Source of the DNA: Desulfosudaceae bacterium
GTDB lineage: Bacteria; Desulfobacterota; Desulfobacteria; Desulfobacterales; Desulfosudaceae
DNA: 64,000 bases
Direction: 5' to 3'
Assembly (NCBI GenBank): GCA_963674745.2
Contig: CAXXDV010000003.1
Span: 2,400,001 to 2,464,000, forward strand
Shown here: piece after piece, positions 1-39,710 of the stretch
Layout: the number at the start of each line of letters is the position of its first letter
Numbering within the stretch: the stretch's first letter is position 1
Made by a program: the position numbers and the translations under genes
The notes under the pieces: generated by a model
The model's input: the letters and a program-made list of their open reading frames with translations, nothing else
Database searches by the model: none
What the model was told of the DNA's origin: nothing

Positions 1-113
1 CCGTCACCCGCCGGCAGATCAAGCACAAGACCATCACGCAGATATTTTTTAAACCAGCTGCCCACATCATCATGGATGTGACGACTCCTGAATAATCGCT
101 TGATCAGACTCAT
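1..113 (-). CDS. 5' part of a probable class I SAM-dependent methyltransferase (runs off window)
   Basis: Manual translation from ATG at 113: MSLIKRLFRSRHIHDDVGSWFKKYLRDGLVLDLPAGDG; VLDLPAGDG resembles SAM-binding motif I. Confidence 0.6.
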   Translation of the reverse strand, partial: MSLIKRLFRSRHIHDDVGSWFKKYLRDGLVLDLPAGD

Positions 114-230
114 CCGGTTTCTTTCTCTCCAGCATTCACTTACAATAAAATAACAAAATAAACGAAAAAACGTGCTTATTATAGGCGGTATGTATAACAA
201 GACTGCAATTGAAGTGTCAATAGGTTAATG

Positions 231-1321
231 GGGACGCCCTTTATATTTTTATATTTAATAATTCAGACAATACAAACCGCTCCTCACAAACGATTCTCTC
301 CCCTTTTCTAACCGCCAGACTCACTGTCGGCACGGCAATTTTAAGGCCGTCAGCGACTTCCGTCATCGACATGCCCAGTTCTCGCACGCTCCAGTAGCAA
401 ACCAGCGCCCGGCCCTTTACGACGATCCTCTCCTTGGACGGCCCGACCAGGGACCGGCCGGGTATCAGGAGCAATTCTGAAACTGCCGCAACGATATCCT
501 TCATCTGAATCCCATTGACGACCATACGGTATCGGTTGTCCATTACTTCCCGGGCGTCTGCCAAAACCGTATTGACGAAATCCCCGTCGCCCAGGATGCG
601 CTCATCGCTCTTTTGAAAGGTACCTGCTTTACGCTGGGAACGGACGGCTGCCCAGCCACCGGCACTGCGCAACAGGCCACCGCCGATAAGCGCCGGTTGT
701 TTGCCCAGTTCCAGGCCTTTAACGACATGTTCCCGATATCGCTTTCGCGCCGTCGCCTGTCGATCACCAAAGTAAGTCAACACCGCTTTTGTGGCCTGCC
801 AGTCATTTTCGTTTTTCCCCAGAATATAACTATGACCGGCAAAACGATATTTATCCAGCGCGGCCATGTCTTTAACCAGCCTGGCTCGCAAAGGATTTAA
901 ATGGATGTATCGTACCAGTTCTTTTAAGTAGACGTCTTCCTGACAAAGAATTGATTTATACCGGTTCTGGAACAAATGTCCGCTTCTGCGATGACGACGG
1001 TTGTGACTGACGGCATAGCCTGTCAGCAAACGCCGCATGACCGAAGAGATCGGCACACTGCCGGTTTTTAACAATAAATGAAAATGGTTGGGAATCAATG
1101 CCCAGGCAAAACATTGGGTCTGAGTTTCTTGAACCAGTTCACCAAGACGCTCTATAAAGTTTTCCCGGTCCTCATCGTCCCGGAAAATTCTGCCGCGCTC
1201 GATTCCTCTGGCAATGATGTGGTGCACCGCACCCGGTGCGTCTATCCTGGCTTGTCTGGGCATATATTATTCGTATCAGACATTGCATCACCTGTAAATA
1301 TAAAAATATAAAGGGCGTCCC
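231..1321. mobile_element. RAYT-like HUH transposase element bounded by perfect 27-bp inverted repeats
   Basis: gggacgccctttatatttttatattta (231-257) is the exact reverse complement of taaatataaaaatataaagggcgtccc (1295-1321); the left repeat overlaps the last codons (NIKI*) of the transposase. Confidence 0.85.
241..1263 (-). CDS. REP-associated tyrosine transposase-like (Y1_Tnp HUH) protein with probable C-terminal HTH
   Basis: MPRQARIDAPGAVHHIIARG start, HUH motif NHFHLLL, HLFQNRYKS and YIHLNP motifs typical of the IS200/RAYT family; C-terminal LGMSMTEVADGLKIAVPTVS is HTH-like. Confidence 0.9.
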   Translation of the reverse strand: MPRQARIDAPGAVHHIIARGIERGRIFRDDEDRENFIERLGELVQETQTQCFAWALIPNHFHLLLKTGSVPISSVMRRLLTGYAVSHNRRHRRSGHLFQNRYKSILCQEDVYLKELVRYIHLNPLRARLVKDMAALDKYRFAGHSYILGKNENDWQATKAVLTYFGDRQATARKRYREHVVKGLELGKQPALIGGGLLRSAGGWAAVRSQRKAGTFQKSDERILGDGDFVNTVLADAREVMDNRYRMVVNGIQMKDIVAAVSELLLIPGRSLVGPSKERIVVKGRALVCYWSVRELGMSMTEVADGLKIAVPTVSLAVRKGERIVCEERFVLSELLNIKI

Positions 1322-1441
1322 TAACTTACCCGGCTTAGCCAGCAAAATTCATATTGAATAATTATTTTCGGTTATGATATTCTTATAATTATCATTGAGA
1401 TCAAAGGGAGCAAAAATAAAAATTATAGGAGTCAGATAAAA

Positions 1442-1645
1442 ATGCCGCAAACAGTCGAAGAAATAACAAAAGCGATCATCAGCCTATCAAAGGAAGATTT
1501 GGCAAGGCTCCGGAGATGGTACGATGAATTTGAAGCAAGACAATGGGATCAGAAATTTGAAGCAGACGCCAAATCCGGAAAGCTGGATCGGTTAGCGGAA
1601 AAGGCGATCAATGACTTTAAATCCGGGCAATGCAGCCAAATATGA
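1442..1645 (+). CDS. Putative antitoxin of a type II TA pair
   Basis: 67 aa, WDQKFEADAKSGKLDRLA motif, AGGAG RBS, ATGA overlap with the downstream toxin. Confidence 0.75.
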   Translation: MPQTVEEITKAIISLSKEDLARLRRWYDEFEARQWDQKFEADAKSGKLDRLAEKAINDFKSGQCSQI

Positions 1646-1899
1646 AACATTTTGCCAACGCAGATTTTTGGGCATGCTATAAAAAATTACCCTTATCCAT
1701 CCAGGAACTCTCCGATAAAAACTTCAAACTCCTGAAAGAAGACTCAAACCATCCTTCGCTGCACCTCAAAAAGGTCAGTCGTTTTTGGTCTGTGAGAATT
1801 GGAATCAAGTACCGAGCACTGGCCGTAGAGATAAACGAAGGGCTCATCTGGTTTTGGATCGGAACTCACGCCGAATACGACAAACTCATATCATCTTAA
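1642..1899 (+). CDS. RelE/ParE-superfamily toxin
   Basis: HPSLHLKKV...WSVRIGIKYRALA...WFWIGTHAEYDKL; likely start ATG 1642 coupled to the antitoxin stop. Confidence 0.8.
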   Translation: MKHFANADFWACYKKLPLSIQELSDKNFKLLKEDSNHPSLHLKKVSRFWSVRIGIKYRALAVEINEGLIWFWIGTHAEYDKLISS

Positions 1900-1991
1900 C
1901 CACGACTTAAGACAACAAAGCCCGTACCCTACTTATTCCCCTACCACACAGGAAAAGAACAAATTTATAGGAAGGGCGCCCCCAAAACGTC

Positions 1992-2339
1992 CTATTTTCC
2001 GTTATAGATTTCTGCAATTTTTTCAACTTCAGGCCGCTCGAAAAGCCTGCCGTTTACATCCATGATCGGGTATTTATACACCATTGTATTTAATCCTGCC
2101 GTTTCCATCCTGGGCAGCACTTCATCAAGGACTTCCTTTTCTTTTATATTCTCATAATAATAAGGGATATCCCGTTCTTCCAGATCGCGTTCCATCTTCT
2201 GGCACCATCCACAGGCAGGGTTTCCGTACAGAATCACATACGGTTCATCATACAACGGTTCCAGCTTATTGCCCGCAAACTGTTGATACCCGAAATAACA
2301 AAGCACAGCCGCTGCTGCTACAAACAAAAGCTTATTCAT
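1992..2339 (-). CDS. Membrane-anchored glutaredoxin-like protein
   Basis: N-terminal hydrophobic segment, CGWC active-site motif, YPIMDVNG; start placed at MNKLL after GGGAG. Confidence 0.75.
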   Translation of the reverse strand: MNKLLFVAAAAVLCYFGYQQFAGNKLEPLYDEPYVILYGNPACGWCQKMERDLEERDIPYYYENIKEKEVLDEVLPRMETAGLNTMVYKYPIMDVNGRLFERPEVEKIAEIYNGK

Positions 2340-2498
2340 GCTCCCCCCCATTCAAAACACTTTTACGTAATATGCAAAATCATAGCTGCTTTCGAAAAAT
2401 ATATGTGAACCGCTCTGGCAGGTTTATCGTTTAAAAAATTTTACGAAAAATCATAAGTGGCAGCAAAGCCATGGAATCATCAGGGGTTGAAAAACATC

Positions 2499-2524
2499 AA
2501 ATATAAAAATATAAAGGGCGTCCC
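2499..2524 (-). repeat. Copy of the RAYT end motif abutting a stop codon
   Basis: aaatataaaaatataaagggcgtccc, identical to 1296-1321, immediately beside the TAG of 2525..3193. Confidence 0.9.
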
Positions 2525-3193
2525 CTATTTGTCCATAGCCTCATTGGCCATACCCAATTTATTGTATAACAATATCAGGTTTTTACGTTTATCGTTGTTT
2601 TCAGGGTCTCTTTTTAAAACATCTTTGTAACACTCAATTGCCAACCCAATATTTCCCATTTTTTCGTATACAGAAGCCAGCACACCATAGCTATTCAAAT
2701 AATCGGGCTCAAATTGAATTGCTTGTTTCAAATGCGCTTCTGATTCTATAAGGTTACCGTTATTATAATAATAGGTTCCCAAGAAATAATGGGCCATTCC
2801 ATTCTTATTATCTAGCCTAATGCTAATCATTAACTCTTCAATTTGTAGTTTCTCTAAATCTTGCATTAAACTCAAATTATCACTAACTTCAACCTCCTTA
2901 TTGTTTTCATTCTTTCCTTTTGAGAAAAAATCATAGAGTTTCAATGCTCTGTTTTTATCGAAAAGCTCTAAATGCTTATAAAAATAAGCAAGGCTTAGAT
3001 TGTAATGAACGATAGCCACCTCAGGATTTATTGTAATTGCCTTTTCATAGACTTCTATCGCACGATCCCATAATCCCTGATGAACAAAATCATTCCCTTG
3101 ATTAAGTAATGCTTCGAACTCATCAGGTGCTGCGTTTAAGCTGGATAGGAAAAAAACAAAAAAGTATAGTATAAAAATACAAAATATTCTCAT
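2525..3193 (-). CDS. Exported TPR protein, putative partner/immunity of orphan CT 3265-3756
   Basis: Signal peptide MRIFCIFILYFFVFFLSSLNA, TPR helices (AIEVYEKAITINP; AHYFLGTYY); lies directly downstream of the orphan CT. Confidence 0.7.
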   Translation of the reverse strand: MRIFCIFILYFFVFFLSSLNAAPDEFEALLNQGNDFVHQGLWDRAIEVYEKAITINPEVAIVHYNLSLAYFYKHLELFDKNRALKLYDFFSKGKNENNKEVEVSDNLSLMQDLEKLQIEELMISIRLDNKNGMAHYFLGTYYYNNGNLIESEAHLKQAIQFEPDYLNSYGVLASVYEKMGNIGLAIECYKDVLKRDPENNDKRKNLILLYNKLGMANEAMDK

Positions 3194-3264
3194 TTCTTTA
3201 CCTCTTTTAAACTTGAAAGAATAACAGAATCCCAAGGATCCAAACAATTATTTAACTTCGTTTA

Positions 3265-3756
3265 TTACTCTAAAGTTAAAGGGTTACAACAATCTTTTCG
3301 ACCTTTAAGTGTTATTTTTTCACATGTTAAATGAGAGCTATGAATATTCTCTTCTCCAGCGGTAACTGTAACATCATGAGGAAATGGCCATGGATCATAA
3401 CAAATAGTTCCAGGTTTTAGAACCCCACATTCTATTTTTCTTTCTTCCTTATAAATTAAATCCATTGCTTCAGCAGAAGAACTTGTATCCGCAGAATACT
3501 TCGTGAAAAATATGATTATGTCAAGACCGTCACCAGGTTGAGCCGTTGGCGTAGAGTCAGCCAAGCCATTGAAATCTTTTGAATTATGTGGGTTATTAGA
3601 CACATATGCATAAGAATTAGTCTTTACTTTGATGACAGAATTAATAATTCTTTGTGTGTAGATCGGATCAACCCTCAGATACCTTCCAACACCCGCATTA
3701 TAGTATCTATGGTAATTATAATGCAACCCCGTCTCTTCATCATAGTATTGGCCCGG
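3265..3756 (-). pseudogene. Orphan Rhs core + C-terminal domain (cassette 1)
   Basis: Frame PGQYYDEETGLHYNYHRYY...RYLRVDP...DFNGL then a unique Cys-rich tail; in-frame TAA at 3796-3798 and no ATG upstream of PGQY. Confidence 0.85.
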
Positions 3757-4160
3757 ATATACTTTGATGCAGGTTACCTCCCGAAGACCTGTTTTTTACC
3801 CCCCTTGTTTTGTTGGTTGTTGGAAATAAAACTGTTCTTTATGGGTTAAAGGGAAAGGGGGTTAAAAGATGCAGAAGCGTATCCATTCTATATGGTCGTT
3901 GGGCAAAAAACCGTCACCCACCAACACAAACAAAACAATTTCTTCTTTTTATATCAAAAATATATCTTGAAATATAAAAATATAAAGGGCGTCCCTAAGT
4001 CCTATATCAGGCCCCGGAGTGGAAATTTGCTCAGAGTGCGTAGAGATCTGCAGTGAAATCGTTCAAGACCACAGGGAACCTAAACCGTAACATGTGGCTG
4101 TCGTGCAAGAAAACCGTCACCCACTAACACACAAGAAACGCATAAAAGCATAGACGTCCA
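3757..4160 (-). repeat. Cassette leader copy 1 (mosaic, includes RAYT end motif at 3970-3995 and second-type end at 4133-4159)
   Basis: Shares gacctgttttttaccccccttgttttgttgg, ggtcgttgggcaaaaaaccgtcaccca and aagaaacgcataaaagcatagacgtcc with the other leader copies. Confidence 0.85.
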
Positions 4161-5495
4161 CTATTCGTTCCCCAACTTGTTGGCTTGGTCCGACCCCGGT
4201 TCCGGTTGGTAATCTCGGACTGGCCAAACATATTGTTCCTCATTAATTTCGACTACATTGCTTTCCCCTCCAAACATCCTTACGGTCCATGCTTCCAATC
4301 TTATGCCTCCCCCATTTATTGGTTTTAAAAATCTAAAGGACGTGCTTGTCCAGTAACTGCCATCGGGTTCTAATAGAAATGGATCACCTGCTGACCATTT
4401 AGAGGTTCCAGATGTATCGGAAAGACAAGGTGAGTGATATGCCATGTTTCTCAAACTTTCCAGTTCAAAAAGATTCGGGAGCCTCCAATCCCCAGTTTTC
4501 GATTGATCTGTCAAGCCGCACTGACCGCTCTGAAGCGATTTACAAAAATCGACAGCTTCATTCCATGGAGCTGGCCCTGTTTCACCTTTTGCAGATCGAT
4601 AGTTGGCTCTTTTTAACCATACCAACCCTGTCAAATTATCAGTTACTGTGCCATTTGAGTTATCCGTAAACCGAGGAAACGGCAATCCCATGCCCTTCTT
4701 TTCATCCCCATCATCACCAGTTCTGTATTTGATTTTCTGCCCTGTCCGCTGAATGGATATAATTGAAGCGATATTGGATTCTTTATCACGAACAGGCCAA
4801 GCTAGACGATGAATACCTTTGTCGAGTGCATTTACGCTTCCTTTAGATATAAAAACATCCCAAGCGCAAGATGGGTCATGCGAACTTGTAGTGCTTGACC
4901 AATAGCCACCAGATAATAGAAAAAACGGATCGCCTTTTTGCCATTGAGAAGTTCCAGACGTATCGGAAAGACTAGGGTCGAGATATGCCATATCCCGCAA
5001 ACTCTCCAATTCAAAAAGATTCGGGAGCCTCCAATCCCCAGCTTTCGATTGATCTGTCAAGCCGCACTGATTGCTCTGAAGGGATTTACAAAAATCGACA
5101 GCCTCATTCCATGTCACCCGGCCTTTTTCACCTGTTGTAGATCGATAGTTAGCCTCTTTCAACCAAACCAACCCGGTTAAAATATCTGTAATGGTTCCAT
5201 TTGAATTGTCTGTAAATCGGGGGGAAGGCCATACAATACCTTTTTTTTCATCCCCATCATCACCAGTTCTGTATTTGATTTTCTGCCCTGTCCTTTGAAT
5301 GGATCTGATTAAAGCAACATTGGACTTCTTTTTAAGATTACTATCTAAAGATTGAATATTGACTGAGTATAGCTGTTTAGAGATTGCGAACCCCGTCAAA
5401 TCATTCCAGGCGGCCCAAATTACGATTGTTAAGGCAATAACCAACATAGATCTCTTTAACAAAAAAGAGAAAGCTTTTTGAAACATTTTCGACAA
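4161..5495 (-). CDS. Membrane-anchored tandem DUF1566 (Lcl C-terminal-like) protein, partner of orphan CT 5519-6175
   Basis: Two RFTDNSNGT..D.LTGLVW...DWRLPNLFELESL...YW.ST...WPVRD domains; 546-bp DNA repeat (4405-4762 vs 4951-5308); N-terminal TM. Confidence 0.85.
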   Translation of the reverse strand: MSKMFQKAFSFLLKRSMLVIALTIVIWAAWNDLTGFAISKQLYSVNIQSLDSNLKKKSNVALIRSIQRTGQKIKYRTGDDGDEKKGIVWPSPRFTDNSNGTITDILTGLVWLKEANYRSTTGEKGRVTWNEAVDFCKSLQSNQCGLTDQSKAGDWRLPNLFELESLRDMAYLDPSLSDTSGTSQWQKGDPFFLLSGGYWSSTTSSHDPSCAWDVFISKGSVNALDKGIHRLAWPVRDKESNIASIISIQRTGQKIKYRTGDDGDEKKGMGLPFPRFTDNSNGTVTDNLTGLVWLKRANYRSAKGETGPAPWNEAVDFCKSLQSGQCGLTDQSKTGDWRLPNLFELESLRNMAYHSPCLSDTSGTSKWSAGDPFLLEPDGSYWTSTSFRFLKPINGGGIRLEAWTVRMFGGESNVVEINEEQYVWPVRDYQPEPGSDQANKLGNE

Positions 5496-5518
5496 TTGAT
5501 TCTCTATGCTCCTGTTGT

Positions 5519-6175
5519 CTATTTACAAGATATATGTTCTTCTTCTCCACAATAGGGCGACAAAAATGTTTTCTGCATCCATTTACCACCACCCCCCATA
5601 CATTCAAATCTTACAGTTACCCCTTCATCTTTGCAACACCCTGTTTGGCAAATTGTATTGGCCTGCTTTATAGCTTTACCCCATAAATCCTCAGCCCCCT
5701 CACCTACATCAACCTCATTATTTGGAAGCTCTACATCTGGGATCGGGGTCTCTACGGTTGTATAGTGTTCCGCATTGCATCCATAGGAAGTGGCGGCAGA
5801 GCATGAATCATTATATACTGTCACGGGAATGTTCGATTGGTCTAACTTTACTTTATCGTCCTGGATTCCTGGATCAGCCACATCCAAGTTGCGGATTCCG
5901 TGACCAAAAAATATTATAACATTACATTTCTCAACCCTAATATAATGAGAACCATCGGCATTCTCATACACACCATATCCTTCACCTGTAGTGCCTTCGC
6001 CCAAAAATCCTGCAGGGTCACTAATGATATTGGGATTATTAAACGCATATAAAAAAAGATTAATCCCTCCATTAAACCCAATCGGATCAACCCGCAAATA
6101 CCTCCCCGTCTTCGGATCATAATACCGCCACATATTATAATGCAGCCCCGTCTCACTATCAAAGTACTGGCCCGG
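5519..6175 (-). pseudogene. Orphan Rhs core + C-terminal domain (cassette 2)
   Basis: PGQYFDSETGLHYNMWRYYDPKTGRYLRVDPIG...NNPNIISDPAGF then a unique Cys-containing tail. Confidence 0.85.
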
Positions 6176-6385
6176 ATATATTCTGATGCGCCTCCCCCCC
6201 GAAAGACCTGTTTTTTACCCCCCTTGTTTTGTTGGCCCCCGGATGAACTTCTTTTTAAAGATATGACAATTTACCATATGGTCGTTGGGCAAAAAAACCG
6301 TCACCCACTAACACACAAAAAAAAAGAAAACGATATAAAAAGAGGTGCTTAACATCGGATAAGTTAATAAGTTAAGGGCGTCTCC
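6176..6385 (-). repeat. Cassette leader copy 2
   Basis: Near-identical to 11408-11506 and 9813-9920; degenerate end motif aagggcgtctcc overlaps the stop region of 6372..7136. Confidence 0.85.
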
Positions 6386-7136
6386 TATTCGTCTCCTGTA
6401 ACTTTTTATTGATCAAATCAAAATATAGCTCGGGAACAGATTCACCTTGGTCCTTGGCTTTTGTTAAATAATTCAATGCTTCTTTATAATCCCCAACATG
6501 ATAAGAACAAACACCCAAATCAAATAAAAAAAAGCTTGAGGATTTACCCCACTTAATCAATTCTTTTAACTCATGCCTTGCATTGATGTAGTCATTATTT
6601 TTTTTATATATCTTTAATAACTTCTCACGCAATACGGTATCAGAAGGATTTATTAGTAAATATTTTTTACAAAATTCTTTTAACTCTTCCTGAGTCATAT
6701 TTGCTTTTAATGATTCTAAATCCTTTTTAGGAAATACGAACACTTCCGTATCACTTCTCATCGTTGAAAGCAACTCATATTGTTTTATACCCTCTGAAAC
6801 ACCTTTTGCCTTAAACACAGCATACATTAAATTATAGTTTAATAAATAGTTATTAGGTTCTATCTTTAGTCCCTCCTCATATATCTTAATAGCATTAACA
6901 AGATCTCCAAGTTTTCTTTCATACAGATTTCCTATTTTAATATATAAATCTATTTTCGTGGGTTTGTATTTTAATGCGTTATTATATTCAAATATTGCTT
7001 CTACAAACCTCTTTTCTTCTTCTAATCGACTTCCTTTCTCAATATACGTCCATTCATCTACATAAGTGTAAGCTTTAGTGCTCGACACAAAAAATACTAA
7101 ACACATTATACTCATTATTAAATATCGTTTTGTCAT
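6372..7136 (-). CDS. Exported TPR protein, partner of truncated cassette 3
   Basis: Signal peptide MTKRYLIMSIMCLVFFVSSTKA; TPR motifs AIKIYEEGLKIEP and LGVCSYHVGDYKEALNYL. Confidence 0.75.
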   Translation of the reverse strand: MTKRYLIMSIMCLVFFVSSTKAYTYVDEWTYIEKGSRLEEEKRFVEAIFEYNNALKYKPTKIDLYIKIGNLYERKLGDLVNAIKIYEEGLKIEPNNYLLNYNLMYAVFKAKGVSEGIKQYELLSTMRSDTEVFVFPKKDLESLKANMTQEELKEFCKKYLLINPSDTVLREKLLKIYKKNNDYINARHELKELIKWGKSSSFFLFDLGVCSYHVGDYKEALNYLTKAKDQGESVPELYFDLINKKLQETNRRRP

Positions 7137-7172
7137 GATAATCTCTCTTTAATAATTATTCTCGCCTTATCA

Positions 7173-7360
7173 TTAAAATGGTATATTATGCTCTTTTTTA
7201 TATTCTTCCGTCACAGGTGGCAATGGATCTAGCACAAGTGTTTCATACTTTTTTTCTGTATTGGCTGTTACAGGATATTCTGTCCCTTTAATTTTTGTGC
7301 ACGATTCTTGAGGCAAGGCAAGATGGCTCAAACATGTTTCCACCCAGCATTCGAATAAAG
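7173..7360 (-). pseudogene. 3' remnant of a probable orphan Rhs CT cut by IS66 (cassette 3)
   Basis: Open frame from the IS end: LFECWVETCLSHLALPQESCTKIKG...KKEHNIPF*, ending 36 bp before the TPR gene; position matches the other cassettes. Confidence 0.6.
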
Positions 7361-7386
7361 GTAAGCGTCAAGTTAACCCCACCCCA

Positions 7387-8979
7387 TCAGGTCGGGGAAC
7401 TCAGAGCGGCTGGATCGAGGTTTTGCGGCAGTAGTTTCTTGTATTCTTCCGGATCACCGTCGATCAGTGGAAGCTGCTCAAAGATATATCGCAAGTACGC
7501 ATAAGGTTCCAGCCCGTTCGCCTTGGCCGTTTCGATCAGGCTGAAGATGGCGGCGCTGGCGGCCGCACCCCGGGGATGCCCGGAAAATAACCAGTTCTTT
7601 CGTCCCAAAACAAAGGGCCGAATGGCGTTCTCCACCAGGTTGTTATCGGGTCGCAGACGTCCGTCCTGAACATAGCCGGTCAGCCGGTCCCATTGGTCCA
7701 GAGTGTAATTGATGGCTTTTCCCAGCAGTCCTTGAGGCGGTGTCTGTTGACTGCGTTTGTCCAGCCACTTTTTAAAAGATTCCAAGATTGGCAAGACCTC
7801 AGCCTGTCGAAGCTCGCGCCGTTGATCCGGGGAAAGTTCCGCTTTATCGGCTCGGCTTTCCACTTGGTACAGTTTGCCGATGAAACTCATGGCCTTTTCC
7901 GCGCTGCCGGGTTTCTGCGGCTTCCCTTTTTTTACCGGCTGACGGGCCTTAATCACTTCATGAAACTTACGGCGTGCGTGCGCCCAGCAGCCGATGTGAA
8001 TAATATTGGAGGCTTGCTCCAGGCTGTTATAACCTTTATAACCATCAGTCTGGATATAGCCCTCGTAGCCGTTTATGAAATTCTTAGGAACCTCTCCGGA
8101 TCGCGTGGGGTGATATTGATAGATCAGCGCCGGTTTATCCGGATCACCTCCGCGGAAAACCCACATATAGGATTTGCTGGTATTATTCCGGCCGGGCTCA
8201 TTCAAAACCTGAACCGTGGTTTCATCCATGCCGATCAATGGACCGGATCGGATCTCTTGGCATAGGCCGTCAATCAAGGGCTGACACCTTTTTGCCGCCT
8301 GAATGGTCCAGTTGGCCATGGTAGCCCGGGGAAGATCGACCCCGATCCGGGTAAACTGCTTTTCCTGGCGGTAAAACGGCAGGCTGTCGGCAAACTTGGC
8401 TGTCAGGATATGGGCTATCAGGCCCGGTGTGGCGATGCTTTGCGGAATAAGTTGCGGCGGTAGCGGCGCTGTCTTGACTGCTCCTTGTTCGGATTCTACG
8501 CCTTCACATTGTTTGCAAGCGTATTTGTATCGAATATGGCGAATAACCTGTACTTTGGCCGGAATAACATCCAGTTTCTCGGAAATGTCTTTGCCGATAC
8601 GGCTCATTTCACAGCCGCAGGCGCACATCTTTTCTTCTTCCGGAATATCGTGAATAACGTCTATGCGCGGCAGGTCATCAGGCAGGGGCTTGCGACCGCC
8701 TTTTTTCCTGGAATGCCCGGTAACCGCTATCTTTTCTTCTTTTTCGTCGGCATCTTCAGCAATATCCTCGGCCTCGTCAAACAGGGTCATCTGCTTGTCA
8801 TCGGTGTCAATTATGTGCTTTTCTGATTTTTTGCCGAACAGCTTGGCTCTTAGAAGACGATTCTGTTTTTCTAAATGCTCAATACGGGTATGCTGAAATT
8901 GAATCAATTCATTGTCTGACTGAATGACTTTATTGAGATCTTTTATGGTATTCTGAAGTTGTGCAGACTCACTGTTCAT
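7387..8979 (-). CDS. tnpC: IS66 DDE transposase TnpC
   Basis: Coiled coil, CACG...CKQC zinc finger, DETTVQV, QTDGYKGY, CWAHARRKF, DNNLVENAIRP, ETAKANGLEPYAYL. Confidence 0.95.
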   Translation of the reverse strand: MNSESAQLQNTIKDLNKVIQSDNELIQFQHTRIEHLEKQNRLLRAKLFGKKSEKHIIDTDDKQMTLFDEAEDIAEDADEKEEKIAVTGHSRKKGGRKPLPDDLPRIDVIHDIPEEEKMCACGCEMSRIGKDISEKLDVIPAKVQVIRHIRYKYACKQCEGVESEQGAVKTAPLPPQLIPQSIATPGLIAHILTAKFADSLPFYRQEKQFTRIGVDLPRATMANWTIQAAKRCQPLIDGLCQEIRSGPLIGMDETTVQVLNEPGRNNTSKSYMWVFRGGDPDKPALIYQYHPTRSGEVPKNFINGYEGYIQTDGYKGYNSLEQASNIIHIGCWAHARRKFHEVIKARQPVKKGKPQKPGSAEKAMSFIGKLYQVESRADKAELSPDQRRELRQAEVLPILESFKKWLDKRSQQTPPQGLLGKAINYTLDQWDRLTGYVQDGRLRPDNNLVENAIRPFVLGRKNWLFSGHPRGAAASAAIFSLIETAKANGLEPYAYLRYIFEQLPLIDGDPEEYKKLLPQNLDPAALSSPT

Positions 8980-9047
8980 AATGGTTTACATAACAAAACC
9001 ATCATGCAATGTCAAGCCTGTTTTATGATTATGTAGTAATTTTTTAC

Positions 9048-9401
9048 TTAAATGACTGTGGAATATTGAAGCCTATCATGTCCCCGAACCTGGGTAATCT
9101 CAAGTCCGTCCAGCAACCACCCCAAACGCCGGGAACCGATCTCCATAACCTCATCATACGACTCTGGCCAGCGAAATTTTTCTTTCTCCAGACGCTTGTG
9201 CCATAGACAAAAACCGTTCCGATGCCAGTATAATATTTTGAGGATCGTTCGACGCCGATTGCAAAAAACAAATAAATGGCCGGAAAACGGGTCAAGTTCA
9301 ATCTGGCCTTCCACCATAATGGACAGGCCATTGATGGATTTTCTCATATCCGTATGACCCATCACCAGAAAAGCCCGCGTTTGGCTGGGAAAGAACATCA
9401 T
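9048..9401 (-). CDS. tnpB: IS66 accessory protein TnpB
   Basis: TDMRKSINGL...LFVFCNRRR..LKILYW..NGFCLWHKRLEKEKFRWP. Confidence 0.95.
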   Translation of the reverse strand: MMFFPSQTRAFLVMGHTDMRKSINGLSIMVEGQIELDPFSGHLFVFCNRRRTILKILYWHRNGFCLWHKRLEKEKFRWPESYDEVMEIGSRRLGWLLDGLEITQVRGHDRLQYSTVI

Positions 9402-9727
9402 CGCCGGTCCACTACTTCCAGAACCTGCTCCAGAACCAACGGCTGAAATCCTTCGGATACTTCTATCCGGTATCGGTTATTAACGACCAGGCTTAACGGT
9501 GCGGACGGCATGGCTTGCGGCAAGGAAATCGGAACCAGGGAGACATCTGATGAAACCGGTTGTTCGAACTTTTTCTTCCAGTACACAAATTGCCATTTAG
9601 ACAAATTGTTTTTTCGCTGATATTCCGTCTGGCTCAGGCCACTGGCCCGCCACATCTGAATATGCCGTTCCCAGAACCGTCGTTTCTCCGCTCGTTCCTG
9701 TTCGCGGTTAATTTTCTTGTTTTTCAT
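9398..9727 (-). CDS. tnpA: IS66 accessory protein TnpA
   Basis: W..HIQMWRASGLSQTEY...QFVYWKKK HTH; ATGA-type overlap with tnpB. Confidence 0.9.
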   Translation of the reverse strand: MKNKKINREQERAEKRRFWERHIQMWRASGLSQTEYQRKNNLSKWQFVYWKKKFEQPVSSDVSLVPISLPQAMPSAPLSLVVNNRYRIEVSEGFQPLVLEQVLEVVDRR

Positions 9728-9812
9728 AATAGCGCCTTTCCGAATTAAATTTTTGGCGCTATCTTGACACGGTCCGCCCGGCTTGTGAAGATGGGGTTAA
9801 TTTGACGCTTAC

Positions 9813-9962
9813 TTTTTTTTACCCCCCTTGTTTTGTTGGCCCCCGGATGAACTCTTTTCTCAAGATATGATAGTTTACCTTAGGGTCGTTGGGCAAAAAA
9901 ACCGTCACCCACTAACACACAAAGAAACCGAAGAAACGCATAAAAGCATAGACGTCCCCATT
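9813..9962 (-). repeat. Cassette leader copy 3 (truncated by IS66)
   Basis: ttttttaccccccttgttttgttggcccccggatgaact...ggtcgttgggcaaaaaaaccgtcacccactaacacac...cataaaagcatagacgtcccc. Confidence 0.9.
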
Positions 9963-9969
9963 AGTCTTC

Positions 9970-10758
9970 CTATTTCTCCCCTAAATATTTCTGAGGCATT
10001 TCGTTAATATCCTTCCTAACGATTTCAATATTAAGGGGCAAAGCAGGCACTTTTATGCTGGACAATGACTTTAGTAAATCCTCTTTTAACTCACGTAATT
10101 TATTATATCTTGATAGGCTAACATTAAATAACAGCTTAGCTTCATCGTTACTATATATATCCGCTGAAGCATAATAATACCTCTTTCTTTCCATTTTATA
10201 TATCATGCAAGTAGCTTTGAGCGACTTAGAATCGATAATATACATACCAATTAATTTACCCACATTAAGGCTCATAAACTTAAAATGCTGATAGGTCCAT
10301 GCCTGTTTATTTTTATTTCTTGCATTAAAGATAGAGATATCGCTTGGGACCGATTTCAGAATCGCCGCTTTTTCTCGGAAGGAAGAGAAACTTATTGAGC
10401 CCCCGCCTTCAATTGTGTCTATCGATTCTTTTTTAGATCCGGTATATGAGACTATGAATGCACCTTTTTCAGAAAAGAAATAAACGCGATCCCCCTCACT
10501 AAATACTTTTTTATATTCCAACTTCGGAACTTTAAAGAAAAATCCGCCAATGTTTAACTCATTCCATTCTTCAGACGTTACGTTTACAGCACTCACACAG
10601 ATTGGAGTTACGCTTAATTGTTCATTTATGTAATCACCAAGCGTTCTCTTGACATGCCAGTTATATTGTAAAACAGGGAAAAAATACCAGATAGAGGCAG
10701 TCAATACGATAGATAGCACCAATGAGAGGCTGATGAACTTTTGATGTTTTATTTCCAT
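9970..10758 (-). CDS. Membrane-anchored hypothetical protein, partner of orphan CT 10832-11407
   Basis: 262-aa AT-rich ORF with an N-terminal TM, directly downstream of the CT. Confidence 0.65.
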   Translation of the reverse strand: MEIKHQKFISLSLVLSIVLTASIWYFFPVLQYNWHVKRTLGDYINEQLSVTPICVSAVNVTSEEWNELNIGGFFFKVPKLEYKKVFSEGDRVYFFSEKGAFIVSYTGSKKESIDTIEGGGSISFSSFREKAAILKSVPSDISIFNARNKNKQAWTYQHFKFMSLNVGKLIGMYIIDSKSLKATCMIYKMERKRYYYASADIYSNDEAKLLFNVSLSRYNKLRELKEDLLKSLSSIKVPALPLNIEIVRKDINEMPQKYLGEK

Positions 10759-10831
10759 AGGATTATTAGCCTAAAATACAACAATACATTTATTGCAAAA
10801 CCGTGACGCAAAATAATGTTATTGCCTTGTT

Positions 10832-11407
10832 TTATTCACAACCAAAAGATTTATATAACTCTTGCGGGAATTCAAAACCCTTTCCTGCTTGGCATTCTGA
10901 CAAAGATTTAACACATTTTTCTCGACATCCTTGTTCATCAAAAGGCGCACTATTATCTAAATAAGCGTAACAACTTCCTTTTGCATTTCTACAGTTCTCG
11001 TTGCATGTTTGTTCAGCAATCATACATGTTGAGGAACGAGACCAAGGCACCTTTGATCCCGCCTTGCAAGCCTTCTCCTGTATTCTCATACTATTACATT
11101 CAGGTGCTTCAGGCACTTCGGACTCCGATGAGTCTTCCTCCTCTTTTTGTTCCTCAAGCCATGGTAAATACTCTAGTTCATATTCAGGTGGCATTAGACA
11201 AGAGGCCCCCCCATTTGCAGTCGGCACACATGTATCTAACCCTAATTGATCAAAGTATCGATTGGGATTATTTAACGCATATAAAAACAAATTAACACCA
11301 CTTGTTAACCCTATCGGATCAACCCTCAGATACCTCCCCGTCTCCGGATCATAGTACCGCCACATATTATAATGCAGCCCCATCTCCTCATCGTAGTATT
11401 GGCCCGG
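10832..11407 (-). pseudogene. Orphan Rhs core + Cys-rich C-terminal domain (cassette 4)
   Basis: PGQYYDEEMGLHYNMWRYYDPETGRYLRVDPIG...NNPNRYFDQLGL then a Cys-rich tail. Confidence 0.85.
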
Positions 11408-11908
11408 ATATATTCTGATGCGAGTCCCCCATAAAGACCTGTTTTTTACCCCCCTTGTTTTGTTGGCCCCCGGATGAACTTCTTTTTAAAGATATGACAA
11501 TTTACCTTTCAAATCAAATGGTCTGTGGCAGTTAAAAAAGAAAACAAATCGGGTGAAAGCGGCTCCAGTATGCCGGAGATGATCTGCTGCCATTTTCTGG
11601 GCAGGCCGGTGTAGATGGTTTTCAGCCGTTTACGACGAGCTTCGTATTCCAGGCAAATATTTTGTACGGCAGGACTCGAAGCCACGGCGGAACAAACATC
11701 ACAACCACCTTACCCGCACGGCTACAGGCGAGGTCGGCCGGCAGAATGGGTGCGCTTCAGGGGGCGTTTTTTTGACCATAAGATTGATCTGCTTCCTTAT
11801 GGTCGTTGGGCAAAAAAACCGTCACCCACTAACACACAAAGAAACCGAAGAAACGCATAAAAAGATAAACGTCCCCATTATCCCTTTGCAAATGTAAAAG
11901 GCGTCCCC
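11408..11908 (-). repeat. Cassette leader copy 4 with a 290-bp insertion
   Basis: Same leader blocks; extra DNA between CCTT at 11505-11508 and CCTT at 11795-11798; end motifs at 11849-11876 and 11890-11908. Confidence 0.85.
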
Positions 11909-11920
11909 AACTTTACAACT

Positions 11921-12265
11921 TTACGTTGGACTAAGTAATCCCATTAAAGAAACAGCAATAAGTAAAATAACTACCACGGCTCTAACATAAGCTCCCATAT
12001 TCTTAAAAAGAACAAAAGGGGGTAGCCATAACCATATTTTTGAATTTATCCCGTCACCAATCATTAACCATAAAGCTAATACAATGCAGAACATCATTTC
12101 AAAAACGTCAAAACAATGCGACTCATAAACCCCTAATAAGAGAATATGTTTATCACGCACAAACCAGTACGAAACAATACAGATTGTAGGATATAAAATG
12201 AAGATTAACATCATTACCACAACCAATGCTTCTAAAGTTGTAGATAAGGCAAGACTCTTTTTCAT
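11921..12265 (-). CDS. Small multi-TM protein, probable cognate partner/immunity of full-length Rhs
   Basis: 114 aa with about 3 hydrophobic segments; first listed ORF downstream of the Rhs gene. Confidence 0.6.
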   Translation of the reverse strand: MKKSLALSTTLEALVVVMMLIFILYPTICIVSYWFVRDKHILLLGVYESHCFDVFEMMFCIVLALWLMIGDGINSKIWLWLPPFVLFKNMGAYVRAVVVILLIAVSLMGLLSPT

Positions 12266-12586
12266 TGTTTAGAGGTACTCCGCTATTAGTGTCCAATTAA
12301 CCTATTCATAAGTCGTATAAATTTTTCTAAGCAAAAGGATGTGCTTCACGAAATCAATATTTAACAATCGACGTCTGTGACACAGTGTTAGAAACGCGAT
12401 AACTTCAAATCTAGATCGCAATAACCGTTAACATCTGGTTGCCATTACCAAAACAGATTACAATAAAAGTTAATCTTCAAAACAATTTGGCATTAAAGAA
12501 ATACCTATTTTACAAACATTCACAAATCACACTTACAAAAGGAAAATTAATAATGGCCCCATCGTTTAAATTTATCCGCATCTGCT

Positions 12587-26050: not shown

Positions 26051-26875
26051 TCAATCACCACAGCTCTTGCATTTACCTGTAAACATCATTCGATCGTCAC
26101 GGGGGGCTCTGGACAAATCCAGGTTATGAAGATATCTGGCGAACCCATCAAGCCCGTCTTTAAGAAAAAACACATGCCTGACACCCGCTTCATGTAACCG
26201 CTTTCTGATGGCTGTGTATCCTTCGCCGGTATCGTTAAACACCAACACGTTATTGGCCGGGTGTTCCTGATTATATTTTTTCAGGATTTCGATTGCGGTT
26301 TCGTCGGCCGGATCAAGAGCGACCGCGTCCTGGAAAAGCGAACCCGTATTTTTACCGGGAGCAGCATTGATTGCTAAAAATGATTGATACTTACTTTCCT
26401 GGTAAACATCAGAGGGTTCCACCATCCATATATCCGATCTGGCAAACACATCACCTGTTAATGAGAAATCCTTCTCCAGCCAGGCATTGATACCACCGCG
26501 CAGGATTGAGACATTAAAGCCCTGCTCTTTGAGTCGCCCGGCTTCCTTTTCTAAAAGGCCGTAATTAAACCCGTTGTTGGTCAGCACCAGCGTGCTTCGT
26601 TTAAAGAACGGCTTGGTCTTGACCGCATAAAGCGGGATATTGATGGCGGAGGTGATGTGAATTTTCTCATAGTCCGGCCGGTTTCTGACATCCACGATCA
26701 GCACTGGTTTTTTCTGTTCCATCTTATGGCGGATCGCATTCGCGCTACGGGTAAAGGTGTAGTCGTGGGTCAGGGGTGCCTGCCCGGTTTTGACCATGCC
26801 GGGTTCAACCGCTGACGCTATAGCCGCGAAACCAAGGATAAAGGCCGTATTTAACAAAAGAATAAATGGCTTCAT
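26051..26875 (-). CDS. Exported rhodanese-like domain protein
   Basis: Signal peptide; LIVDVRNRPDYEKIHITSAINIP and LRGGINAW rhodanese motifs; C-terminal CKSC. Confidence 0.8.
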   Translation of the reverse strand: MKPFILLLNTAFILGFAAIASAVEPGMVKTGQAPLTHDYTFTRSANAIRHKMEQKKPVLIVDVRNRPDYEKIHITSAINIPLYAVKTKPFFKRSTLVLTNNGFNYGLLEKEAGRLKEQGFNVSILRGGINAWLEKDFSLTGDVFARSDIWMVEPSDVYQESKYQSFLAINAAPGKNTGSLFQDAVALDPADETAIEILKKYNQEHPANNVLVFNDTGEGYTAIRKRLHEAGVRHVFFLKDGLDGFARYLHNLDLSRAPRDDRMMFTGKCKSCGD

Positions 26876-26887
26876 TTAAATCGATTC

Positions 26888-39563: not shown

Positions 39564-39710
39564 GGGGACGTACTTTTGGGGACGCCTTTAATATTTCTAT
39601 ATTTAGCCCTTGGCAATTCCTCTCTATTGTTACGTATAAAATGGTTATAGAACAATGCTATCTGAAAAAAAAATAATCACCAAATATAAGAATATAAATA
39701 TGGGGTGCCC
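39564..39710. repeat. Degenerate inverted pair of RAYT end motifs (empty, non-autonomous element)
   Basis: ggggacgcctttaatatttctatattta (39578-39605) and aaatataagaatataaatatggggtgccc (39682-39710); extra ggggacg at 39564. Confidence 0.7.

Follow-up and report, generated by a model that had tools for sequence, protein, structure and literature searches.

Terminal repeats of a TIRYT transposase gene stand at the cassette junctions of an orphan Rhs toxin array in a Desulfosudaceae bacterium

In a 64,000-nucleotide stretch of Desulfosudaceae DNA (the window), a short repeat recurs both around a TIRYT gene, that is, a RAYT-like gene with long terminal inverted repeats at its flanks, and at the cassette ends of an adjoining array, in which a full-length Rhs gene and its immunity gene are followed by orphan toxin/immunity cassettes (Table 1). 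These are known kinds of element in a new and possibly meaningful association, which hints at a role in cassette shuffling but is no proof of one.

The TIRYT gene and its terminal repeats

The gene at 241-1263 matches Pfam Y1_Tnp (41.9 bits, cutoff 23) and reaches 68.9 bits with the NCBIfam RAYT model, short of the cutoff of 80. It has at least 8000 homologs, mostly of 340 aa and named RayT or transposase at source, and the HUH motif and tyrosine are invariant in 18 of them. The C-terminus is assigned as a DnaA-domain-IV-like HTH on weak scores (Bac_DnaA_C, 19 bits, below cutoff; DnaA domain IV profile, E 0.015-0.24), and the best Foldseek matches are 4er8 (RAYT) and DnaA DNA-binding domains. 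A first reading of the letters alone (the sequence-only reading) had taken the motif for the end of this transposase gene, as the perfect 27-nt inverted arms around it confirm, but had called long non-palindromic inverted ends atypical. They are no anomaly: according to the available parts of the literature, they define the TIRYT/TIRtron class, published in 2013 (Di Nocera et al.; PMC3733652) and equivalent to subclass 2.1 of TnpA_REP (Quentin et al. 2018; PMC6006769), both being delimited by such gene and repeat traits. As in the portions of these accounts available, the protein is RAYT-like but longer than RAYTs, with a Y1/HUH domain and a C-terminal Bac_DnaA_C-type HTH, and the long terminal inverted repeats lie at a fixed short distance from the gene. 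The repeats start with a G-rich stretch (the published consensus fits at 7 of 8 positions) and also occur as singles, dimers and groups, with few gene copies per genome.

The same arrangement is found across the order. Flanking inverted repeats of its TIRYT loci start with the same box in 21 of 30 cases and inside it in 4 more, and the distance of 31 nt between upstream repeat and start codon is shared by most of these 30 loci. The 8-bp internal periodicity noticed in the window is real and is also found ahead of TIRYT genes elsewhere in the order: at period 8, 10 of 28 loci match at 7 or more of 8 positions (shuffle mean 0.14), compared with 0-3 loci at periods 5-7 and 9-11. In a congener whose TIRYT gene is 77% identical in DNA to that of the window, the 18 bases printed past the box are identical to window type I in all four repeat copies, and orthologous genes in other genera have identical repeats at their flanks.

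Two TIRYT paralogs (51% identical) are present in the genome, each paired with a repeat type of its own, and repeat copies number about 32. The second paralog has a type II repeat 33 nt before its start codon, and the 37 kb around it hold 12 of the 22 type II copies, 8 of them as inverted dimers; two box-box palindromes lacking 8-mers are found nearby.

Table 1. Features of the window (positions counted from its first letter)
Feature	Position	Strand	Remarks
Downstream terminal inverted repeat, type I	231-257	+	27-nt arms, 100% complementary to 1295-1321; holds TIRYT stop codon
TIRYT gene, 340 aa	241-1263	-	Y1/HUH transposase domain and C-terminal DnaA-domain-IV-like HTH
Upstream terminal inverted repeat, type I	1295-1321	-	Pairs with 231-257; ends 31 nt before start codon
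Decayed type I-like copy and leader stump	1955-1992	-	Read from sequence; directly past stop of glutaredoxin-like gene 1992-2351
Solitary exact type I repeat	2499-2524	-	Abuts TAG stop of TPR gene 2525-3247
Orphan Rhs C-terminal module 4	3265-3726	-	TIGR03696, 42.1 bits; with TPR gene 2525-3247 (TPR matches)
Solitary exact type I repeat	3970-3995	-	Heads junction of cassette 3265-3726
Type II repeat	4135-4160	-	Abuts TAG stop of Lcl_C-domain gene 4161-5495
Orphan Rhs C-terminal module 3	5519-6133	-	TIGR03696, 46.6 bits; with gene 4161-5495
Type III repeat, box and two identical 8-mers	6360-6385	-	Well-formed third variant among the "degenerate" copies
IS66-family element, three ORFs	7354-9819	-	Pfam matches and inverted repeats
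Conserved leader behind repeat	9878-9932	-	Other copies 3891-3928, 4105-4134, 6274-6329, 11795-11849
Type II repeat	9933-9958	-	11 nt past stop of gene 9970-10758
Presumed immunity gene of module 1	9970-10758		Paired with 10832-11383
Orphan Rhs C-terminal toxin module 1	10832-11383	-	TIGR03696 Rhs_assc_core, 56.7 bits
Type II repeat	11850-11875	-	In junction behind main immunity gene
Decayed type I repeat	11882-11908	-	69%; 13 nt past stop of gene 11921-12265
Presumed immunity gene of main Rhs toxin	11921-12265	-	Position only
Full-length Rhs protein gene, 4454 aa	12587-25951	-	Last 1499 aa: RHS_repeat 249.5 bits, RHS 62 bits

Repeat copies and stop codons

The recurrence first noted is borne out, with four exact type I, three type II and three degenerate copies within 231-11908, and the array copies all face the same way, on the minus strand, which is that of the genes. 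Each repeat consists of a G-rich box and two tandem 8-mers. The exact type I 26-mer (231-256 on the plus strand; 1296-1321, 2499-2524 and 3970-3995 on the minus strand) has only these four copies across the 5.55-Mb genome; they have 26-29 nt in common, with unrelated flanks. The 26-mer has a fifth match at 39579-39604, where 3 positions differ. The 8-mer type of 6360-6385 also flanks TIRYT genes in other genomes. That the recurrence arose by chance or from low complexity in AT-rich intergenic DNA, as the simple, AT-rich tail of the motif might suggest, is refuted by the five type I matches observed against none in 100 shuffles and by the identical repeats at orthologous genes in other genera, leaving it next to no probability.

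Contact with stop codons, another claim of the sequence-only reading, holds for six consecutive genes, which stop inside a motif or at most 13 nt before one. The distance from stop to G-rich box is 0 nt at 2525 and 4161, 11 nt at 9970 and 13 nt at 11921. In the TPR gene 6372-7136 the reading frame crosses the box and ends within the first 8-mer, the stop at 1992 (of a gene matching Pfam Glutaredoxin) abuts the decayed copy that is the weakest of the set, and the TIRYT gene's own stop (241-243) lies inside its downstream repeat. The four bases preceding the box, often ATAG or TAAT, can themselves provide a stop. Scanning the whole genome for the motif revealed strong enrichment just past stops: 11 of 20 solitary copies start at most 22 nt past a same-strand stop, compared with 6.3% of intergenic positions (nominal binomial p about 6e-9, the copies not being independent).

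The Rhs array and its relatives

The proposal that the motif delimits cassettes proved sound, and the cassettes are orphan Rhs toxin/immunity modules, which had gone unnoticed. The core end of module 1 repeats that of the main Rhs gene (98% over 93 nt). The IS66-family element sits in the leader of the cassette after module 1, of which a stump (7173-7343) and the TPR gene 6372-7136 are left. Gene 4161-5495 matches Lcl_C with 151.5 bits, and a family search with gene 11921-12265 gave no match. The repeat at 3970-3995 truncates a ClpX-zinc-finger gene remnant (4006-4089, plus strand), an intact homolog of which, matching zf-C4_ClpX, lies at C1:1409827-1410252.

Two sister loci, at C1:1.40-1.42 Mb and C3:2.71-2.72 Mb, and a third in a congener each hold two Phage_integrase genes, adjoining co-oriented cassettes that bear the same junction; the window's own array has no integrase. 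The C1 array also contains a TIRYT stump of 11 codons together with its type II repeat. A genome from another family has an integrase pair, a toxin module and an immunity gene and, 21 nt further on, a repeat of box and two 8-mers, which is unique there (0 further matches at up to 3 mismatches).

The junction module

The repeat forms only the first ~26 nt, at the 5' edge, of a ~90-nt junction module made of repeat and leader, and the last stop of every cassette abuts the repeat because the repeat is this edge. In a blastn comparison of window positions 1-13500 with the genome, recurrence is confined to junction modules and Rhs core ends, the cassette bodies being unique, and homology blocks end at the 5' edge of the repeat (4159-4173, 9957-9975 and 11876-11887). 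The genome has 15 real copies of the leader, and in 14 cases a repeat with such a box, of type I, II or III, stands before it.

The sequence-only reading likened the repeats to attC sites. They do delimit cassettes, but the likeness to attC is not borne out: as single strands, junction modules fold no better than shuffles (z +0.7 to +1.2), and no recombination product was found. Complete junction elements show three hairpins between A and T runs, with compensatory changes in 21 of 60 predicted pairs. Type I is scored as weakly terminator-like, with a small G-C hairpin ahead of a T-rich run (fold z -2.15; 10 of 200 shuffles fold equally well or better), and type II has no hairpin of its own.

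Such hairpins would suit ordinary REP-like passengers that lie behind stops, where they either do no damage or affect the transcript (by terminating it, protecting its 3' end or tuning its translation), and that have no part in array building. REP elements are common just downstream of genes, and a rule cited in a preprint, in its available text, holds that, to regulate translation, a REP must be no more than 15 nt away from the gene before it; here, dimers outside the toxin loci also lie near stops (15, 5, -13 and 38 nt). Free insertion, however, would not be expected to place at least 14 of 20 solitary copies in Rhs-type cassette loci, nearly all with the same leader. A further point against passengers is that this gene order is found again in another family, where it likewise closes with a repeat of this kind. 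With the folding results for type II and the modules added, a passenger role is doubtful.

Growth of the array

The demonstrated identity of gene and repeat, array anatomy and homology boundaries are probably best accounted for by TIRtron end repeats combined with cassette accretion via junction modules. Cassette-wise accretion is plausible because the sister arrays carry paired tyrosine recombinases, and a dedicated recombinase, if any, is likelier to be that pair than the Y1 transposase. The HUH domain would act on the box and the DnaA-domain-IV-like HTH may read the 8-mers. The array would most likely have grown cassette by cassette through junction modules, either by site-specific integration by paired tyrosine recombinases, as at the sister arrays, or by homologous recombination between copies of the junction module and of the Rhs core end. 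The repeats would have been carried along, and the two nearest the resident TIRYT gene may have been converted to its exact type. One congener cassette junction has neither repeat nor leader and bears only a longer Rhs core remnant, so that not every addition depends on the module.

The co-oriented repeats could also be thought of as working sites of the Y1 transposase itself, in an attC-like HUH cassette system. By IS200/IS605-like 'peel and paste', one strand would be cut at two successive boxes and the cassette freed as a single-stranded circle, to be put back beside another repeat. In all copies, conservation between junctions sets in no more than about 12 nt from the box, as it would at the end of a transposon. 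Genes that are unrelated adjoin the repeat at 0-17 nt, and two of them read through the box, ending RRRP and RGRP. The exact copies, whose flanks are unrelated, are found no farther than 3.8 kb from the TIRYT gene, this gene stands at the end of the array as the TIRYT stump stands inside the C1 array, type II copies cluster about their paralog, and the two box-box palindromes resemble footprints or empty sites. Against this, the constant part of the junction is the leader, preceded by three or four repeat types, and junction classes part where the leader ends, about 90 nt away from the box. The unique cassette-end repeat in the other family means that no resident repeat family matches it, and a 99% complete congener keeps junctions and type II dimers while a TIRYT search found none at E <= 1e-30. 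In the available parts of the literature, TIRYT/RAYT genes, with their inverted flanking copies, are regarded as not self-mobile. No circle or deletion joint was seen. A cassette system run by the Y1 transposase is improbable.

Besides the congener junction and the lack of an integrase in the window's own array, other observations fit growth by accretion less well. Neither a recombination product nor cassette polymorphism was seen in the available runs, which are contigs with their joints in repeats. Plain co-duplication of the module leaves unexplained the unrelated flanks of the exact type I copies, whose identity over 26-29 nt points to some activity on the repeat itself, and several repeat types before one constant leader fit functional pairing as well as passive carriage.

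Relation to known systems

The available parts of PMC3733652 and PMC6006769 contain no mention of tandem 8-mers co-varying between repeat types or of a link to toxin cassette arrays, and Quentin et al. (PMC6006769), in the same parts, report that no REP-like sequences were found near subclass 2.1 genes, unlike the family of about 32 copies here.

Orphan Rhs arrays reportedly arise by C-terminal displacement, a proposal said to go back to Jackson et al. in 2009. As described in the available text of Steele et al. (2017), such arrays hold a full-length Rhs gene with its immunity gene and then 5'-truncated toxin modules, each with an immunity gene and a kept core end. Integrases linked to Rhs genes have earlier been noted as possible helpers. 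Unlike in those arrays, each cassette here ends in a ~90-nt module headed by a transposase end-repeat, and the orphans bear a shared non-Rhs leader upstream of the kept core end. Integrons and Bacteroidales recombinase-associated rAID arrays (PMC12247911, available parts) share co-oriented short cassettes with conserved intergenic motifs between them and, as in the sister loci, tyrosine recombinase genes at one end; the window differs in having no IntI-type integrase, junctions that do not fold as attC hairpins, and cassettes that are toxin-immunity pairs sharing a coding repeat, the Rhs core end.

The catalytic fold is that of IS200/IS605, with IS200, IS608 and ISDra2 transposases among the Foldseek matches, but the ends are inverted repeats and not one-strand subterminal hairpins, there is no TnpB, and the genome has only the two diverged gene copies. 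REP/REPIN-RAYT systems, reportedly described by Bertels and Rainey in 2011, likewise have a domesticated single-copy Y1 transposase between inverted copies of its own repeat (4er8 is the E. coli TnpA_REP structure) and inverted doublets clustering in intergenic DNA. The unit here is non-palindromic, by contrast, and the family is small, with many copies solitary and co-oriented in arrays.

The TIRYT gene and its flanking repeats

The protein encoded next to the array (see table) is predicted to contain a Y1 transposase domain, with an HUH motif (H60, H62) and a catalytic tyrosine (Y119) that are invariant in 18 homologs; the NCBIfam model REP_Tyr_transpos scores 68.9 bits, below its cutoff of 80. 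At least 8000 relatives are present in the database. The best 120 of them are nearly all 340 aa long, share 61-82% identity, and are named RayT, transposase or HTH protein by their sources; listed hosts are Desulfosudis, Desulfatitalea and other Thermodesulfobacteriota. Bac_DnaA_C (Pfam) reaches 19 bits on this protein, under the cutoff of 31.5, and PF08299 is precomputed for the majority of the listed homologs. A profile made from the 18 homologs weakly matches DnaA domain IV structures (E 0.015-0.24), and a single-sequence search of the PDB returned only a designed repeat protein (E 0.071). The AlphaFold model has a mean pLDDT of 62 and a poor N-terminal half (only 18 close homologs), with residues 250-335 mostly above 88 except for one 10-residue block at 79. 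Its top Foldseek match is the E. coli RAYT-REP complex (4er8_A, E 0.011); DnaA DNA-binding domains align over residues 250-335 with TM 0.72-0.75, and IS200/IS608 transposases are also found among the best matches. Because Foldseek gave nothing at E <= 0.001, the fold evidence is supportive only. These individually weak lines agree on a C-terminal helix-turn-helix (HTH) of Bac_DnaA_C type, which is, with HTH_23 and HTH_28, one of the types that characterize TnpA_REP subclass 2.1.

TIRYT genes are widespread in the order, being detected at E <= 1e-30 in 116 of the 201 genomes sampled. To our knowledge, the literature assigns them neither a function nor a substrate. One genome of the same genus (G010, 99% complete) has no TIRYT at this threshold, yet it carries type II inverted dimers and box-headed junctions; the repeats may have outlived their gene there, or the gene may lie in unassembled DNA.

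The window gene is flanked by 27-nt arms (231-257 and 1295-1321) that are 100% complementary. The sequence-only reading considered such ends atypical, but passages of Di Nocera et al. 2013 (PMC3733652) describe TIRYTs as RAYT-like genes with long terminal inverted repeats, the whole units being called TIRtrons, so that such ends are the hallmark of a known class and no anomaly. The same passages give a G-rich consensus for many of these repeats, with families occurring as singles, dimers and groups; the window box fits the published eight-letter consensus at 7 of 8 positions. Most TIRYTs belong to TnpA_REP subclass 2.1, with an HTH of Bac_DnaA_C or related type, according to parts of Quentin et al. 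2018 (PMC6006769). Like these genes, the window gene has long terminal inverted repeats in place of REP hairpins. It departs from a strict RAYT by its score below the REP_Tyr_transpos cutoff and its non-palindromic flanking repeats, each of which folds into a 4-bp hairpin only. IS200/IS605 elements are expected to have subterminal one-strand hairpins and multiple near-identical copies, whereas the ends here are inverted repeats and the genome holds two full TIRYT genes (241-1263 and, on contig C3, C3:1589265-1590254), 51% identical, plus a 50-aa fragment.

All three repeat variants (types I, II and III) consist of a G-rich box followed by two tandem 8-mers. Among 30 TIRYT loci fetched from the order, the same box starts the flanking inverted repeats in 21, the repeats begin within the box in 4, and 5 show no repeat or a spurious pair only (in one of the five, a contig end interrupts the locus). 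For 23 of the 25 loci with such repeats, the distance from the inner end of the upstream copy to the start codon is 26-40 nt, and the two ~8-nt units after the box vary in sequence between lineages. An 8-bp internal periodicity had been claimed, and it recurs beyond the window: scored 58-28 nt ahead of the start codon in 28 TIRYT loci, at least 7/8 matches occur at period 8 in 10 loci, compared with 0-3 at periods 5-7 and 9-11, and with a mean of 0.14 loci (maximum 2) in 500 shuffles. In a congener (G011) whose TIRYT ortholog has 77% DNA identity, the 18 bases after the box in four repeat copies are identical to the window type I, and in a genome of another genus a 28-nt identical repeat surrounds a TIRYT gene with 77% protein identity. 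The repeat thus has two parts, just as the protein has two domains, the HTH being the putative reader of the 8-mers and the HUH domain that of the box. This match of a box and two co-varying 8-mers to two domains makes a direct and cheap binding or cleavage test possible.

Copies of the repeat in the window and the genome

Recurrence of type I was confirmed as an exact 26-nt sequence at 231-256 (+) and at 1296-1321, 2499-2524 and 3970-3995 (-). By 100 shuffles, 0 matches are expected in the window. Across the 5.55-Mb genome, in which the window is C3:2400001-2464000, no further exact copy exists, and 8 sites match at <=6 mismatches. Type II copies were located at 4135-4160, 9933-9958 and 11850-11875 (-); 23 genomic sites lie within 6 mismatches, of which 22 look real and one (C1:708133, on contig C1) does not. 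Every array copy sits on the gene strand (-), as had been proposed. Three copies had been called degenerate, which suits 11882-11908, a decayed type I, and 1955-1992, a decayed type I-like copy carrying a stump of the junction leader, but not 6360-6385 (-), a well-formed type III in which the box precedes two identical 8-mers. The 32 copies listed in the genome break down into type II (22), type I or type I-like (7), type III (1) and decayed (2). Twelve type II copies are clustered within 37 kb round the second TIRYT gene; eight of these pair up into four inverted dimers, in which 16 nt separate the arms, and this paralog has a type II repeat 33 nt ahead of its start codon. Chance recurrence is excluded by the shuffles and by the same box in other TIRYT loci of the order. 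The box was also considered as a target-site duplication, which was rejected since type I boxes are inverted, not direct.

Distant from the array, a type I relative with 3 mismatches (39579-39604) belongs to a type I-like inverted pair (39578-39604 and 39682-39710, 77 nt between arms) that forms a small MITE-like dimer between two divergent operons. Palindromes of two abutting G-rich boxes that lack 8-mers occur at C3:1585191 and C3:1587708, in flanks resembling those of neighbouring dimers; these may be excision footprints or empty sites.

The Rhs locus

A full-length Rhs gene with RHS repeats and core is followed by 5'-truncated core-end modules, each with a small gene. All three orphans tested match TIGR03696, and Rhs core-end DNA is repeated at 3661-3816, 6018-6275, 11228-11467 and 13040-13180. 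No family match was obtained for the toxin tips and three small genes of the locus. When 1-13500 was searched against the genome with blastn, each toxin tip and immunity gene was found once; the recurring parts were Rhs core ends and junctions only. Contigs of four sequencing runs compared with 1-14000 gave joints that are short-sided in repeats or contig-derived, none of them informative on excision or polymorphism, and the 21% share of the two sediment metagenomes corresponds to the IS66 copy.

Features of the TIRYT-Rhs region and of the three-hairpin element (bare coordinates, window; L-numbers, fetched loci)
Feature	Coordinates	Strand	Remarks
TIRYT gene	241-1263	-	340 aa; Pfam Y1_Tnp 41.9 bits (cutoff 23)
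Glutaredoxin-like gene	1992-2351	-	last in row; ParE-like pair and TIRYT next
Presumed immunity gene of orphan 3265-3726	2525-3247	-	TPR
Orphan Rhs module	3265-3726	-	TIGR03696 42.1 bits; begins inside Rhs core end
Presumed immunity gene of orphan 5519-6133	4161-5495	-	Lcl_C
Orphan Rhs module	5519-6133	-	TIGR03696 46.6 bits; begins inside Rhs core end
IS66-family element	7354-9819		breaks fourth cassette, leaving stump and TPR gene 6372-7136
Presumed immunity gene of orphan 10832-11383	9970-10758	-	no family
Orphan Rhs module	10832-11383	-	TIGR03696 56.7 bits; begins inside Rhs core end
Three-hairpin element	11691-11800		partial in window
Small gene	11921-12265	-	adjoins Rhs gene in locus order
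Rhs protein gene	12587-25951	-	4454 aa; RHS_repeat 249.5 bits, RHS 62 bits
Three-hairpin element, complete	L029:4622-4898		
Three-hairpin element, complete	L007:8746-9023		
Three-hairpin element, complete	L010:585-861		
Three-hairpin element, complete	L041:16750-17029		

Several smaller features accompany the locus. The ends of the IS66-family element lack matching direct repeats, and a second copy, 97% identical, at C3:45462-48083 also adjoins a type II junction, which suggests either that the IS mediated a deletion or that it prefers junction DNA. A ClpX-zinc-finger gene, whose intact homolog is located in the C1 array, is represented by a 3' remnant (4006-4089, +), the cut coinciding exactly with the start of the type I repeat at 3970-3995. 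Within the Lcl_C immunity candidate, a stretch of ~440 nt is tandemly duplicated with 81% identity (4342-4784 and 4891-5331). A small two-gene pair at 1442-1899 (+), the second product ParE-like (25.7 bits), separates the array from the TIRYT gene, and directly upstream of the Rhs gene, at 26051-38335, lie a giant ORF (3815 aa) and a 274-aa ORF.

Junction modules and stop codons

The junction between cassettes consists of a repeat and, behind a short spacer, a conserved leader. Blocks of homology stop at 4159-4173, 9957-9975 and 11876-11887, that is, at the 5' edge of the repeat or at most ~12 nt beyond. Fifteen real leader copies are present in the genome (4 more pattern matches are spurious), and a box-type repeat (I, II or III) precedes 14 of them. 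Beyond the leader, the copies form a few classes that diverge at nearly the same base. The complete element continues with three hairpins flanked by A and T runs, for which compensatory changes were observed in 21/60 predicted pairs (8 copies from five genomes); it may consist of stacked bidirectional terminators, an att region or an unknown RNA. Rfam returned no family at E <= 1 over motifs, leader or complete junction elements, and a promoter scan found fewer sigma-70-like sites than in shuffles. It seems improbable that the repeats are purely regulatory passengers. A tRNA or tmRNA origin of the junction was rejected, as the only tmRNA reported by ARAGORN is elsewhere and no tRNA is near these loci. 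An IS/MITE-like inverted repeat begins directly behind the three-hairpin element.

An exact box-plus-leader search of 201 genomes of the order matched this genome and one congener only, and the module is on this account lineage-specific; a looser DNA search matched 8/13 genomes of the family, some weakly. No box-type repeat was seen after the orthologous glutaredoxin-like gene of a congener.

Conservation of the junction begins with the repeat, so that whichever gene is upstream ends against it. TAA or TAG occurs within four bases ahead of the box in 13/32 copies, and three genes (2525, 4161 and C1:1414664) use the pre-box TAG as their stop. In two unrelated genes (6372-7136 and a gene of a congener), the reading frame crosses the box and closes within the first 8-mer, giving proteins that end in RRRP and RGRP. 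The frequent contact with stop codons claimed from the sequence alone was recovered genome-wide: 11/20 solitary copies start <=22 nt after a same-strand stop, compared with a background of 6.3%, although the nominal p of ~6e-9 is an illustration and not a test, because the copies share ancestry.

It had further been suggested that the repeats act as attC-style cassette delimiters. With the Y1 enzyme taken as the recombinase, this proposal accounts for the sharp 5' boundary of junction homology and for the occurrence, near the TIRYT gene, of exact 26-29-nt copies whose flanks are unrelated. However, it is the leader that stays constant between junctions and not the repeat, junction classes part 90 nt from the box, and the junctions lack the single-strand folding of attC sites (z +0.7 to +1.2: +0.68 and +1.19 for each strand of 9878-9963, +0.86 for 6274-6390), 143 to 188 of 200 shuffles folding at least as well. 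Taken together, a Y1 recombinase acting on attC-like sites is very doubtful. With regard to the IntI/attI arrangement of integrons, no integrase ORF was found in window positions 1-26000 or in the 15 kb upstream; sister arrays have two Phage_integrase genes and a hairpin spacer.

Sister loci and tyrosine recombinases

At C1:1.404-1.424 Mb, a second Rhs gene is accompanied by five orphan cassettes that share one orientation and have type II junctions; the far end is occupied by two Phage_integrase genes (C1:1422619-1423994). At C3:2.707-2.720 Mb, two tandem units with a primase-like gene between them each contain two integrases, a toxin module, an immunity gene, and a repeat with a complete junction element. 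A congener has the same gene order behind its main Rhs gene, one junction being without repeat and without leader. The hairpin spacer between the integrase and the first toxin module is common to the sister loci and varied in other families. Integrase orthologs with 56-63% identity were found in 4 other genomes (101 searched, this one included). One of another family, G079, has a box-plus-two-8-mers repeat and a hairpin 21 nt after the immunity gene, with two further repeat-hairpin units nearby; its cassette-end repeat is unique in its genome at <=3 mismatches. The integrase-linked loci of G026 and G067 have box-like variants only, with no clear repeats.

Altogether, it is probable that TIRYT end-repeats stand at the head of junction modules and that the array grew through these modules, one cassette at a time, either by the tyrosine recombinase pair or by homologous recombination. 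The ends of the Rhs core would provide the second homology in such additions.

A broader scheme is tentative and rather unlikely, namely that a Desulfobacterota family performs integron-like capture of Rhs cassettes with composite sites, paired tyrosine recombinases and TIRYTs that stamp 3' ends. The composite site would be a TIRYT end-repeat plus leader or hairpin at each cassette end, the recombinase pair would insert cassettes there behind the resident Rhs gene, and TIRYT with its repeat would stamp a 3' end, often including a stop codon, on newly captured immunity genes. If true, this would answer how cassette ends are born.

TIRtrons, REP-like repeat families and Rhs orphan arrays have each been published already. 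Rhs-linked integrases are also in print, as parts of Steele et al. 2017 show, and for immunity genes the nearest integron-like precedent is the Bacteroidales rAID arrays, as described in passages of PMC12247911. In the portions of full-text literature covered, no paper was found that ties repeats of TIRYTs or RAYTs to the borders of Rhs or toxin cassettes. By its fixed position at the 3' borders of such toxin/immunity cassettes, seen in two families, the repeat connects a domesticated HUH transposase with the way interbacterial weapons turn over. If functional, the link would add a mechanism to the 'C-terminal displacement' model and would bear on the origin of integron-like cassette ends; if not, there is still a clean TIRtron and repeat family beside an Rhs orphan array.

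In the second Rhs array, a type II repeat at C1:1411600-1411730 is followed by just the first 11 TIRYT codons, and this site once held a TIRtron that has since been deleted. A mobile module composed of an XRE-type gene, a primase-like gene, two tyrosine recombinases, a hairpin spacer, a 5'-truncated Rhs/YD toxin module and an immunity gene recurs in at least 4 families of the order (C3:2707000-2720852 and C1:1404000-1424000 here, locus L041, and L092-L094 in G079), and resident Rhs genes may acquire new toxin tips through it.
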